DNA from: a candidate division WOR-3 bacterium
GTDB taxonomy: Bacteria; Hydrothermota; Tepidihabitantia; B3-TA06
Direction of reading: 5' to 3'
Assembly: GCA_965649265.1 (NCBI GenBank)
Contig: CBFGKC010000021.1
Location: forward strand, 1-28,629
Length of the DNA: 28,629 nucleotides
The notes below the pieces were generated by a model. It was not told where the DNA came from. It saw nothing but the letters and a program-made list of their open reading frames with translations, and did no database searches. Shown here one piece after another: positions 13,123 through 17,388 of this stretch. The stretch's first letter is position 1, and every line of letters begins with the position of its first letter. The position numbers and the translations under genes are program-made.

Positions 13123-14986
13123 TTTCTTCTTGAGGGGTCGCTGCCTTCAGATGCCTGTAAAGCGCGAGAAGCGCTACAGGAGTAACACCGGAGATGCGTG
13201 ACGCCTGTCCCAGGGTTGTCGGCTTGATAAGATTGAACTTTTCAATGACTTCGTTTGAAAGACCCGGTACGACGGAGAAATCCAGGGTGTCAGGAATCGT
13301 AACTTTTTCGATGCGTTTAAAACGCTTGGCTTCATCGAGAGCCCTGTCAACATATCCCTTGTATTTTATTTCTATCTCAACTCTCTCGCGAACAAAAGGT
13401 GCCAGCTCCGAAAGCCCTTTGTCCAGTTCATCCATGTCGTTTATGTTTAATTGGGGACGCCTGAGAAGGTCTGCTATGCTTAGTTTTTCGGTTGTTGCTT
13501 CAACTCCATGTGATGCAAGGACCTTGTTTGTGCCGGTAATCTCGGGCCTGGTTTTTTCGAGTCTCTGAAGTGTTTCGCTGACCGCGGTTTCCACGGCCTC
13601 GACCTTGCGATAGTCTTTTTCTCGAAGAAGTCCTATGTCTTTGCCTATCTCGGAAAGTCGCACTGCGGCATTATCTTCGCGCAAGAGAAGCCGGTATTCC
13701 ACACGCGAGGTAAACATCCTGTAAGGTTCGTTTGTACCGCGCGTGACAAGGTCATCTATGAGTACGCCTATATACGCCTGATCCCGACGCAGTGTTAATG
13801 GAGATTCTCCTTTTACCCTCAGTGCGGCATTGATTCCAGCAATAAGCCCCTGAGCGGCAGCCTCCTCGTAGCCGGTCGTTCCGTTTATCTGCCCGGCAAG
13901 AAAAAGATCACGGATTTTCTTGGTCTCAAGCCATGCATAGAGCTCGGTAGGTTGAACGTAATCGTGCTCTACGGCATATCCCGGCCTGGTCATTTCAGCG
14001 TGTTCGAGCCCCGGCACGGAACGAACCATCCTGACCTGAACGTCCAGGGGGAGGCTTGTAGAAAGGCCGTTGGGATATATCTCGTGCGTGGAGATTCCCT
14101 CGGGTTCAATGAAAACACGGTGAGAATCCTTGTCCGCAAAGCGAACGACCTTATCTTCAATAGAAGGACAGTATCGAACTCCGGTTCCCTGTATTTGTCC
14201 TGTGTAGAGAGGCGATCGGCTGAGATTTTCCTCGATTATTTTATGCGTCTCCAGGGTAGTACGCGTAAGATAACAAAGAGCCTGGTTTTTTAGTTTTGCC
14301 TTGGTGAAAAAGCTAATACCGGGAGGGGGCTCCTCTCCGGGCTGGGGTTCCATTTTTTTGTAGTCAAGCGATCTTGCGTCAAGCCTAGGAGGCGTACCTG
14401 TTTTGAATCTGCCCAGCTCAAAGCCAAGAACCCTGAGGCTCTTAGCGAGAGAGTTCGAAGCATGATCCCCCAGCCTCCCCCCCGGGAAACTCTCTGCGCC
14501 GATGTGAAGCAACCCCGTGAGGAAGGTACCCGGAGCCACAACTACGGCTTTCGCCTTTATCCTTCCCGCCGCCCTCGTTTCGACACCCGCAACTCTTTCA
14601 TTTTCTACTAGCAAAGCTTCTACTTCGTCCTGCCAGAGGGACAGGTTCGATGTCTCCTCTAACACTCGCTTCGAGAAATCACGATACATGGCCTTGTCGC
14701 ATTGAATACGTGTGGATTGAACGGCAGGACCCTTGCTTTGATTCAATCTGCGAAAATGTATCCCGCACCGGTCGGCCAGGCGCCCTTGCAGGCCTCCAAG
14801 CGCGTCAAGTTCCCTGACAAGCTGGCTTTTCCCGAGGCCGCCGATCGCCGGGTTGCACGACATCTGACCGATGGTTTCCAAGTTCAAAGCGACAAGAAGG
14901 GTACGGCACCCCATACGGGCTGACGCATACGATGCCTCAATTCCCGCATGGCCTGCGCCTATGACAATGACGTCATAAGAAGTCAT
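13106..14986 (-). CDS. mnmG: tRNA U34 carboxymethylaminomethyl modification enzyme MnmG (GidA)
   Basis: [67 protein letters not shown]. Confidence 0.98.
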
Positions 14987-17388
14987 CAGAAAAGACCCTG
15001 CACAAGAAGATATATCATTACTCCTGCTAGAACCAGAAAGAGAAGGGCCGTGAGGATTTTAGTGAGACCGGCACGTCGTGTAAGGAAGGTCTGCAGGTGC
15101 TTCTCGGTCATTCCGAATCTGACAAGTATGAAAACTATCACAAGAGGAACAATGAAGGCGACGTTATACAGAATCAGATACAAAAAGGCCTTGCTTTTCA
15201 ACTCGGCTACCTGGGCGACATACACCAGTGTCGGCAGGTAAACCTGGCCGGTACACACAAGTTCGAAAAGGGAAACAAAGAATCCTGTCACAACCGCGCC
15301 GACGACGAATCCGCCCAATGTGGTTTTTGACCTTATCATCTTGTTCATCCGTTTACGAATCCTGTCCGGCATCTTCAATGCCATTCGTTCGCCCTCACCC
15401 CGTTTCAGAAGCAGGTAATCTCTAAAAGAAAGAATAGCAAGAACAAGGAGGAACAAAACGGTTGCACCGAAAATTACCCTCGAAACCCAGCGAAGAACTG
15501 TAAGAAGCGCAAGAATCTGATAGGCCAGTAGTCCTAGAATGAGGTAGGTAAGAAAAACAGACAGGATGAACGGTATAGCCACCCACAACACCTTGCGCCG
15601 CTCGACGCCCAGGACTGACAGATAGGTGATAAAGAATATGAGTGTCGCAAAGGCGCAAGGGTTGATGCCGTCTATGAGACCAGCCCCCAGTATGGGAAGA
15701 ATGCTGAACCCCTCAAATTGCCTAATAATTTGTTCCTTGCCCCTGCTGCGCAGTGAATCAATCTTTTCCCACGGGATCGACTTACCGCGCTGAGACTCTA
15801 CGAGATTCTTGAGCGAGACGAGGGACACATCATCCCTGACAAGATAACCACTGCCTACAAAGATAGCCGGAGTGAGAAGTCGCTCTTCTTTTTTTAGAGA
15901 ATACGCTTCTGCGAAAGCGGCCAGAAGCGTTTTGGAAGCTGTGTCCTCAACGCTGTAGATTTTTACCGAGAGAGTCGAATCTTCGGAAGCAATGGCACGT
16001 AAAAGAGAACGGGCCCTGTCGCACTCCTTACAGCCGAAGGTAGAAAAAAAGACTAGCTCCTGACCGCCGCTTTTAGTCAGGGAGGTGTCGACAGGAACGG
16101 TACTGGTGTCGACATTAAGAACAAGAGACCGACCCGCGTATAAGGATGAATCCTTGCTCGAGTATTTGGGTCGGATGGAAAGAAGAAGTTTCTCAAGGCT
16201 TGCCGTCACCTCTTCCTCGCCGCTGAGAACCATGCCCTCAAAAAAAAGAACGGGGATATCGTTATCGCGATCGTTGGCAGCGGCTTCCATCTTTTCAAGT
16301 AAAGCATACTCGTTGGATTCGTTAATGTCATGAAGCTTGACCGAAAAAAGACCGGGATGTTTTTTTATGAGTTGTGGTAGAAAAACCTTAATCGTTCTCA
16401 TGCAGTGAGGGCAATCGGGCGCATAAAAGAGATCTATGAGCACGGGAGAATGTTTTGAAGAAGAAATCGTTTGCGTGTCATGCGGAATTAACGTCGAGTC
16501 CAGCTCAACGCTGTCTTCCTCAAGATATGGTGCAATCATTCTCTGGATTGAAGGCTCTTCCGGATAATCGGTTGTCAGCGCCTTCACCTCGTTGGTCTCA
16601 AGCGAGAGAGATGGGGGAACGGCGACTCGACTGAAGCGGGCAATCCCGAAGTGCTTAGCATCCGCGCCTGCACCGAGGATATAGGCATTGCCAGATTTCT
16701 CAGGCGAAGGAAGGTTTGCCGGCGTGTGTCCGGAGATGATGATGTCGAGTTCCGGGAACTCCTTTGCTATTTCTCTTTCCTCATCAATTCCGAGGTGTGA
16801 GAGAAGAACTATAACGTCACCCTTGCTTTTGAGCATAGGCATTGCCGCGCGAAGTTCGGCTGCGGGATCGGTGGCCTTCACCCCCCCGAGTTTTGATGCA
16901 TCGTAGAAAAGGAATGCGCCCTTGTTGATGAGAGACGTGATGACAATCTTCAAGCCTCCGCGCTCCTTTACGACATACGGCTGGACGAGCCGTTCGCCGT
17001 TCCGGTAGACATTGAGGGAAATAAAGGGCAGCCTGTTTTTCATCCTTTTCTCGAAGAAATCGTACCCGTCAACGAATTCCTGGTCGCCGAGGGCCACGGC
17101 ATCGAGCGGTATCCTGGAATAGGCCTCGACGAATACCGAATCCTTCAACCTTGACGGGAAAGGCGCAAGCAGATCGCCCGCATCGAGTACGAGGATGGAT
17201 GGGTCCGTGCTTTTAGCCGAATTGACAGCACTTGATCTTCGTGGAAGTCCGCCGTACGGATCGTCCGGGCAGCGACACCAGGTTATGGTACCGTTCGGTG
17301 AGGCGATGTAAAAGATGTTGAACTCCTGGGATTGGAGGACCGACACCGCAACAGTCACGAGGAGAATCCCCACTAATTTTCTCAACAT
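14986..17388 (-). CDS. exported multidomain protein: UshA-like metallophosphoesterase (CxC) + two thioredoxin folds + CcdA/DsbD-type TM domain
   Basis: Signal peptide; [57 protein letters not shown] and ELVCTGQVY in a multi-TM C-terminus; TGATG overlap with mnmG. Confidence 0.8.

Follow-up and report, generated by a model that had tools for sequence, protein, structure and literature searches.

A putative one-chain thiol relay ending in a nucleotidase-fold head in a candidate division WOR-3 bacterium

We describe a fusion gene at 14986..17388 on the minus strand of a candidate division WOR-3 contig (CBFGKC010000021.1, assembly GCA_965649265.1); the window is the whole 28,629-nucleotide stretch that was analysed. 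The 800-amino-acid (aa) open reading frame (ORF) has no internal stop and joins a likely signal peptide, a UshA-like head, two thioredoxin (Trx) folds and a CcdA-like membrane domain. On balance, we slightly favor the reading that this single chain is a reducing relay of DsbD type with its domains permuted, in which the nucleotidase-fold head is the last carrier through its cysteine (Cys) pair C38/C40. What is observed here is the order of the domains, the conservation of four Cys pairs, a membrane domain homologous to CcdA, a head that has lost catalytic motifs, and heads with in-frame TGA codons beside unfused relay genes. Labels beginning with G, L and P denote genomes, loci and proteins of this analysis; G000 is the host.

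Domain architecture

The protein contains exactly eight Cys (residues 38, 40, 326, 329, 453, 456, 578 and 712). A preliminary description of this DNA, made from the sequence alone, read them as four pairs along the chain, and the ORF bears this out: CRC (38/40), CPHC (326/329), CKEC (453/456), and NPC (578) with LVC (712) in the membrane domain. All four pairs proved to be conserved among aligned relatives: both head Cys in 48 of the 49 fusions covering the region (fusion P0275 has a single Cys), C326 in 139/150 and C329 in 140/150, the second Trx pair in 149/150 and the membrane pair in 150/150. Pfam gives weak thioredoxin and glutaredoxin matches at residues 310–362 and 444–481, and NCBIfam weak DsbD and ArsG matches at residues 560–792. 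Residues 1–20 (17329..17388, minus strand, as for all domains below) are a likely signal peptide, with a basic start and a hydrophobic core read from the sequence and a hydropathy peak.

The head (residues 21–290; 16519..17328) has the N-terminal fold of 5'-nucleotidases. Its best NCBIfam match, over residues 18–252, is the UshA-like (seleno)protein model NF041198 (E 8e-38), at 130 bits against a cut-off of 275 and over model positions 19–265 of 519 only. The AlphaFold model (mean predicted local distance difference test score, pLDDT, 94.7) matches the N-terminal domain of 5'-nucleotidases in Foldseek (3ive, query TM-score, TMq, 0.86; 1ush, TMq 0.79). Cys38-Arg-Cys40 (17269..17277) lies in the loop ahead of GGLPRR, and its second Cys aligns with the TGA of stand-alone neighbours described below.

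Aligned with solved 5'-nucleotidases, S30-P-N32 takes the place of DxH and G101-D-Q-E104 that of GNHE, while DAGD (69–72), SHLG (197–200) and GHTP (220–223) are present; every altered or kept motif quoted in the preliminary description is thus in the protein. GHTP is the weakest sign of degeneracy because the last GHxH position is also variable (N or H) in solved ordinary 5'-nucleotidases (five alignments). The catalytic His position, which we take to be His117 of E. coli UshA, holds His in none of the 53 fusions covering it and Gln in 46, and DxH is in none among the 36 fused rows listed. A C-terminal substrate-binding domain is also absent: a Trx fold follows directly, and Pfam finds no 5'-nucleotidase C-terminal domain. 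By sequence, the head has lost the catalytic His and the first metal site. The host has an ordinary 5'-nucleotidase elsewhere (contig C1), with all motifs kept and no such Cys pair. We rejected an ordinary 5'-nucleotidase for the head, an identity that the preliminary description had named as its refutation, on the replaced DxH and GNH motifs and the missing substrate-binding domain. Mean identity among fusions is 65% for the head versus 63% and 52% for the Trx domains and 75% for the membrane domain, so the head, being as conserved as the Trx domains, is not decaying. A contig scan with the head as query gave one locus, which was unrelated.

Trx-fold 1 (residues 312–408; 16165..16455) carries C326-P-H-C329 and Pro379 and is identified by a weak Pfam Thioredoxin match and motif conservation. 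The motif itself varies, reading CDHC in most close relatives with both Cys kept, and P379 is present in 144/150. Trx-fold 2 (residues 440–545; 15754..16071) carries C453-K-E-C456 and Pro507 (148/150), and its model matches thioredoxins (best Z 10.7, root-mean-square deviation 1.6, 82 aligned). Both domains are thioredoxin folds as judged by motif, and the second also by predicted structure.

The membrane domain (residues 553–800; 14989..15732; about six helices) holds C578 and C712 in the motifs DGxNPC and ExxCTGQxYLP. HHalign of a 74-sequence family profile against a 23-sequence profile of canonical CcdA/DsbD-beta gives 97.2% probability (E 4.7e-11, 206 columns) with both Cys in register; the canonical profile itself matches the solved CcdA structures 5vkv (E 7.5e-36) and 2n4x. 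The CcdA likeness noted earlier therefore holds, and at the level of profiles the domain is a divergent CcdA/DsbD-beta homologue. Its divergence shows in other sequence searches: PF02683 at E<=0.01 matches 3 of the 74 family members only and not the host fusion, and searches of the PDB with the domain or its profile gave no match. Structure searches with a model of Trx-fold 2 plus the membrane domain were dominated by the Trx part; they gave thioredoxins and generic helical bundles, with CcdA not among the matches listed, and speak neither for nor against a CcdA fold. Neighbours in the ESM Atlas (0.90–0.92) include clusters with DsbD_TM, DsbD_2 and SfLAP families. In the membrane model (pLDDT 90), the first helix is broken just ahead of P577-C578. 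Basic residues number 3, 12 and 5 in the loops after helices 1, 3 and 5, and 2 and 2 after helices 2 and 4, a pattern that fits a predicted topology with the N-terminus outside. Three polar residues not seen in the CcdA alignment are conserved: D573 (149/150), E709 (146/150) and Q715 (150/150).

In the relay that we envisage, cytoplasmic TrxB/TrxA would reduce the membrane pair C578/C712, which would reduce Trx-fold 2 (C453/C456); this would reduce Trx-fold 1 (C326/C329), which would pass electrons on to C38/C40. As a counterpart of DsbD-alpha, the head would be a scaffold that holds out an exposed dithiol to clients in the envelope. TrxB and thioredoxin-family genes are present in all five fusion genomes tested, and the host has TrxA and TrxB. 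Thioredoxin in the cytoplasm is described as the electron source of DsbD, CcdA and ScsB alike, each of which uses two membrane Cys to supply a Trx-like protein in the periplasm; in DsbD, the electrons go from beta to gamma to alpha (PMC3322552). By analogy, we incline modestly to the path from TrxA through the membrane pair and both Trx folds to a client-reducing head; topology, direction, transfer order and clients are what we infer here. A complex prediction of head, Trx-fold 1 and two Mn scored 0.02 (mark 0.32) and has no weight either way.

Distribution

The preliminary description allowed that the fusion might be confined to this assembly or be an artefact. A database search scored 7,995 candidates and returned 676 proteins, and the best 23 match the fusion at 59–94% identity over 98–100% of its length, several of them named WOR-3 or Ca. 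Stahlbacteria. We therefore rejected an assembly artefact, the more so as related genomes hold the intact fusion. Among 41 of these, it is in all 11 of the host's family and in G013 and G015; G062 completes the 14 intact fusions in 272 genomes of the phylum, and the fusion recurs in several lineages. Three more WOR-3 fusions are in pieces: that of G011 is divided between two contigs, and those of G018 and G012 between two frames, in G012 where the sequence has a run of N. By a hand count over the 272 genomes, about 89 further ones have the Trx-membrane module without the head, and about 106 have the module, fused or not. Among distant fusions, those with a named source are from Desantisbacteria, Omnitrophota and Edwardsbacteria.

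In a set of 342 membrane-domain proteins, which is redundant and biased toward the query, the head occurs in 54, a DUF1573 immunoglobulin (Ig)-like domain instead in 16, and both modules in 8 of the 54; most others have only one to four Trx folds. When the head is mapped on a tree of 140 dereplicated membrane domains, 10 changes are required, two of which are forced by well-supported branches. A single origin of the fusion was rejected by the approximately unbiased (AU) test (p 0.005 under LG+G4; 40 of the 140 rows, picked after the first tree was seen). The membrane domains that carry the head do not form a single clade, which means that head and relay were joined or separated more than once.

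In other lineages, the N-terminal slot is occupied by a DUF1573/OS_HP2 Ig-like domain with CxC, as in 9 of the 13 WOR-3 relay genes examined. This alternation between a nucleotidase fold and an Ig-like CxC domain parallels the differing alpha domains of DsbD and ScsB; these two classes are said to differ mainly in the alpha domain (PMC3322552). DUF1573 and UshA-like proteins are both listed as selenoprotein families (PMC9312934). The host genome also encodes an exported stand-alone DUF1573/OS_HP2 protein with CGC (L196:1438–2121, G000 contig C5), which may be a client of the relay or a second alpha module for it. Ten proteins of 1,335–1,514 aa (P0260, P0264, P0265, P0279, P0290, P0291, P0294, P0297, P0298 and P0302) end in the same Trx-membrane module; P0260 has another head type, an N-terminal Trx-like domain with HEAT-like repeats.

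Unfused relatives and in-frame TGA codons

A metagenome scan with the membrane motifs gave at least 584 confirmed matches, of which the best 80 were analysed (2 fused, 78 unfused). Within the fetched flanks, 5 of the 78 unfused loci carry stand-alone homologues of the head, six genes in all. No ordinary 5'-nucleotidase was found at the 78 loci by the hidden Markov model (HMM) that detects the host's ordinary enzyme at E 1e-46; about 0.2–0.5 would be expected, assuming 1–2 per 2.5 Mb. At L049, the stand-alone head gene precedes the relay gene by 16 bp, the same order as in the fusion.

In four of these loci (L049, L055, L104 and L118), a TGA in frame takes the position of the second Cys, with 63–254 open codons before it and 69–281 after; L104 stops at the contig edge. 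The three TGA heads that align in full have lost all metal-ligand motifs, and therefore the Cys/selenocysteine (Sec) pair outlasts the metal site. The second gene of L056 has no Cys at the pair's place. A check of homologues for TGA at CxC, which the preliminary description had called for, thus succeeded in these stand-alone neighbours of the unfused relay and failed inside the fusions, as none of the 14 intact WOR-3 fusions, the host's included, has an in-frame TGA. SelA was not found in the host genome (96% complete).

A six-pair hairpin lies 3' of the TGA in L049, L055, L104 and L118, four of the five TGA genes, and is complete in none of 19 Cys genes. It shows a compensatory change at third codon positions, but these sequences also served to draw the structure, and its test was not significant, with the score reached in 48 of 500 shuffles. 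In G247, the fifth TGA head gene has no such hairpin.

Longer relatives of the L055 TGA protein were sought, a weak test that found two nucleotidase-type proteins and no Sec fusion. Fusion P0173 is 36% identical to the L055 protein and starts right at the ARR motif, which may be the result of an upstream TGA. Many stand-alone UshA-like proteins of 307–327 aa (P0123–P0158) likewise start just past the expected Cys motif, as would be expected if gene callers restarted 3' of a TGA. One UshA-like PCGC protein (L155:2863–4239, minus strand, G061) is fused to four CxxCH motifs and adjoins DUF1573 and Trx-domain genes.

Genomic context

Behind a strong promoter match, the fusion is the first gene of what is likely an operon that also holds mnmG and a gene for a QueG-like Fe-S protein. 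mnmG (gidA; 13106..14986, minus strand) starts in an overlap with the fusion's stop codon; it adjoins the fusion in 12 of the 13 fusion loci compared and is probably in the same operon. In G062, mnmG is not adjacent. The sigma-70-type promoter match (11/12; 17398..17425, minus strand) ends 10 nt 5' of the ATG, so that a transcript from this consensus match would be nearly leaderless.

Downstream of the fusion, a conserved block at 8046–14986 (minus strand) encodes mnmG, the QueG-like 4Fe-4S protein, RseC/MucC, NifS and NifU fused to FeS_assembly_P. The fusion is near nifS/nifU in the host's family; in some genomes, a sodium:solute symporter is also in the block. Four minus-strand promoter matches (10–12/12) with TTGACA and 16-nt spacers lie between 10313 and 17425, and divergent sigma-70-type matches occupy 17398–17457. 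Other features of the window are a tRNA-Met at 17886–17957, what looks by reading like minus-strand rRNA in positions 1 to about 3400, which have no long ORFs, and a TIM-barrel protein at 18498–19313 (minus strand) with a below-cut-off match to the cobamide remodelling phosphodiesterase CbiR, which is beside the fusion in 8 genomes. The ResB-like and CcsA-like genes (20846..22514, plus strand) are syntenic in the host's family only, and we place them outside the system; the ResB start is 3,458 bp from the fusion ORF start, in agreement with the distance of about 3.5 kb given earlier. The pair is kept in 10 of the 11 family genomes. The ResB-like protein is short (260 aa), and the WWD-type motif of CcsA reads WGSWWMREPK.

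Thiol-redox genes neighbour the unfused relay at 19 of the 78 loci. At seven (L062, L088, L107, L115, L117, L120 and L122), the relay gene follows SufB/D-like genes, often with a SufC-like gene too.

Evaluation of alternative explanations

Several findings weigh against a reducing relay that ends in a redox head. The second-site metal ligands are mostly kept in fusions (D72 46/51, D102 45/52, H198 52/54, H221 41/54), and a pure scaffold would not need a metal site. C712 lacks the preceding Pro of CcdA and is modelled in an unbroken helix. Since about 89 WOR-3 genomes have the module without the head, and only one of these (G247) has a stand-alone CxC/TGA head among the matches listed, the head is optional. 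L055, L104 and L118 share gene order and are probably kin, which reduces the TGA observations to about three independent ones. A canonical CcdA is encoded at each of these three loci and at L056, in most cases together with a thioredoxin, and this pair might serve the stand-alone heads instead. In addition, G247 has a TGA head and SelA was not found in its genome; G015 and G062 have SelA, yet their fusions use Cys. Finally, clients are not indicated by the neighbourhood, because the conserved neighbour is mnmG.

The kept metal ligands, together with Gln103, which is conserved in fusions, would fit a head at the end of the same wire that is itself an enzyme, reducing or hydrolysing a small molecule by means of one metal site and a Cys pair that the relay regenerates. 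The substrates that we considered are oxyanions (arsenate or another one), an organoarsenical and, by analogy with SoxB, a compound with a sulfur-sulfur bond. Genes of ars type (ArsR-, Acr3-, ArsC- or ArsP-like) neighbour 14 of the 78 unfused loci, including two of the five with a stand-alone head. SoxV/SoxW is reportedly a CcdA/thioredoxin pair. The head also matches SoxB, an enzyme with the 5'-nucleotidase fold whose substrate is a sulfur group bound to protein (PMC10451225). However, the TGA-bearing neighbours (the three aligned in full) have no metal ligand at all, H221 is Gln in 10 of 26 close fusions, and none of the 13 compared fusion loci is in an ars cluster, as judged from shared neighbours. 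The host's ArsR/ArsP/Acr3-type operon has its own canonical CcdA beside a thioredoxin, and ArsR-family regulators are not specific to arsenic. That operon (L021; G000 contig C4, 167028–171320) runs ArsR, ArsP-type permease, exported thioredoxin, canonical CcdA, small thioredoxin-like protein and Acr3. We regard a terminal enzyme as possible, if rather unlikely. The same membrane polar residues D573, E709 and Q715, not seen in the CcdA alignment, suggest that the chemistry may differ, and an improbable variant is that the relay runs in reverse, oxidising exported proteins with electrons flowing inward in place of DsbA/DsbB. CPHC is the active-site motif of DsbA, and neither DsbB nor VKOR was found in the five fusion genomes tested, host included. 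Against this, DsbB is commonly absent in anaerobes, CDHC replaces CPHC in most close relatives, no acceptor-binding feature is evident, and the three classes described in PMC3322552 all export reductant.

The head might also be a redox-independent phosphoesterase or binding domain riding on the relay, with C38–C40 a structural disulfide. Alignments place two Cys of CD73 and of venom 5'-nucleotidases in the loop that holds C38–C40, ahead of GGxAR; these form a structural disulfide, which our literature search did not confirm. The single Cys of P0275 and the absence of Cys in the second gene of L056 would also fit. This account must face the TGA at the second Cys in four neighbours, a spacing between the Cys of just one or two residues, the loss of the catalytic His in 53 of 53 fusions, the absence of a substrate-binding domain and the repeated pairing with the relay, and we consider it quite improbable. 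Least credible to us, and very improbable, is that the fusion is the dedicated thioreduction arm (the equivalent of CcdA plus ResA) of the ResB/CcsA cytochrome c maturation pair, to which the preliminary description had suggested that it may supply reductant. CcsA is in 10 of 11 genomes of the host's family, about 4–8 kb from the fusion in six, but this proximity has little weight because synteny in the family covers the entire block, with mnmG and nifS/nifU. CcsA was not found in any of the five tested fusion genomes outside the family (G011, G012, G013, G015 and G018), nor in the 11 f6 and f9 genomes carrying the unfused module; ResB was not found in G013, G015 or G018 and was found in one of four tested, G062, on another contig. 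Of 11,206 six-frame ORFs in the host, 25 of at least 100 aa contain CxxCH, and by eye, with no Pfam scan of them, none is evidently a c-type cytochrome. With the host's separate CcdA and thioredoxin, these results speak against the suggested supply.

Comparison with known systems

The reducing relay with a redox head, which we continue to favor, resembles DsbD and ScsB in being one chain with a two-Cys membrane domain, a periplasmic Trx fold and an N-terminal periplasmic Cys-pair domain (PMC3322552). It differs from DsbD in domain order (head-Trx-Trx-membrane versus alpha-beta-gamma with an Ig-like alpha domain), in having about six helices rather than eight, in having one to four Trx folds across the relay family, and in its head, a nucleotidase fold or DUF1573; the DsbD model NF001419 scores the fusion at 23.6 bits (cut-off 330). 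The ScsB class is marked by the ScsB-alpha domain and a Lys at +8 from the first membrane Cys (PMC3322552), whereas residue 586, at +8 from C578, is Phe in the fusion and invariant in 30 aligned fusions. CcdA (PF02683; 5vkv, 2n4x) has a homologous membrane domain with Cys in register and the first Cys after Pro; unlike it, the fusion has soluble domains, ExxCTGQxYLP without a Pro before the Cys, and an extra basic loop after helix 3.

The head shares its fold, and CxC ahead of GGxxRR, with the UshA-like (NF041198, NF049981) and COG0737 CxU proteins. Other members (P0153, L155) run into CxxCH-bearing domains, whereas the fusion runs into Trx and membrane domains and has Cys, not Sec. With UshA, CD73 and SoxB, it shares the N-terminal metallophosphoesterase fold (TMq up to 0.86) and largely keeps DxGD and two His, but it has lost DxH and GNH and lacks the C-terminal substrate-binding domain. 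A precedent for an unrelated (seleno)domain on a DsbD-like membrane domain is TsoB, a rhodanese/DsbD fusion-like selenoprotein (NF045694; PMC13188914). Its head is different, and NF045694 has no match to the fusion at E<=0.05 and matched a canonical CcdA neighbour. Judged by sequence features, then, the fusion belongs to the DsbD superfamily by its membrane domain and falls outside the class definitions of DsbD, ScsB, CcdA, full-length UshA-like proteins and 5'-nucleotidases.

We give even weight to the view that the family is a widespread fourth class of the DsbD superfamily, in which one to four Trx folds and a DGxNPC/ExxCTGQ membrane module would be combined in permuted order with interchangeable alpha modules. 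UshA-like (CxC/CxU) and DUF1573/OS_HP2 (CGC/UGC) domains, both from orphan selenoprotein families, would be the terminal carriers, the former a phosphoesterase fold turned thiol/selenol redox domain. We did not find this architecture described in a full-text literature search, whose reach excluded the possibly relevant Haft and Tolstoy 2025 (mSystems, on selenoprotein neighbourhoods).

Of the major selenoprotein families in the sea, UshA-like proteins were reported as one of three that lack a recognised redox motif based on Cys (PMC2398784), and later reviews mention them in tables only (PMC13188914, PMC9312934). In the fusion and the split operons, the UshA-like Cys/Sec pair would be the last member of a chain that exports electrons across the membrane, so that its role can be tested directly. 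If this is true, an orphan, selenium-using family would gain a defined pathway, and the DsbD/CcdA/ScsB scheme would gain a permuted class that is common in uncultured lineages and largely missed by Pfam. An enzyme fold would then have been reused as a redox carrier.

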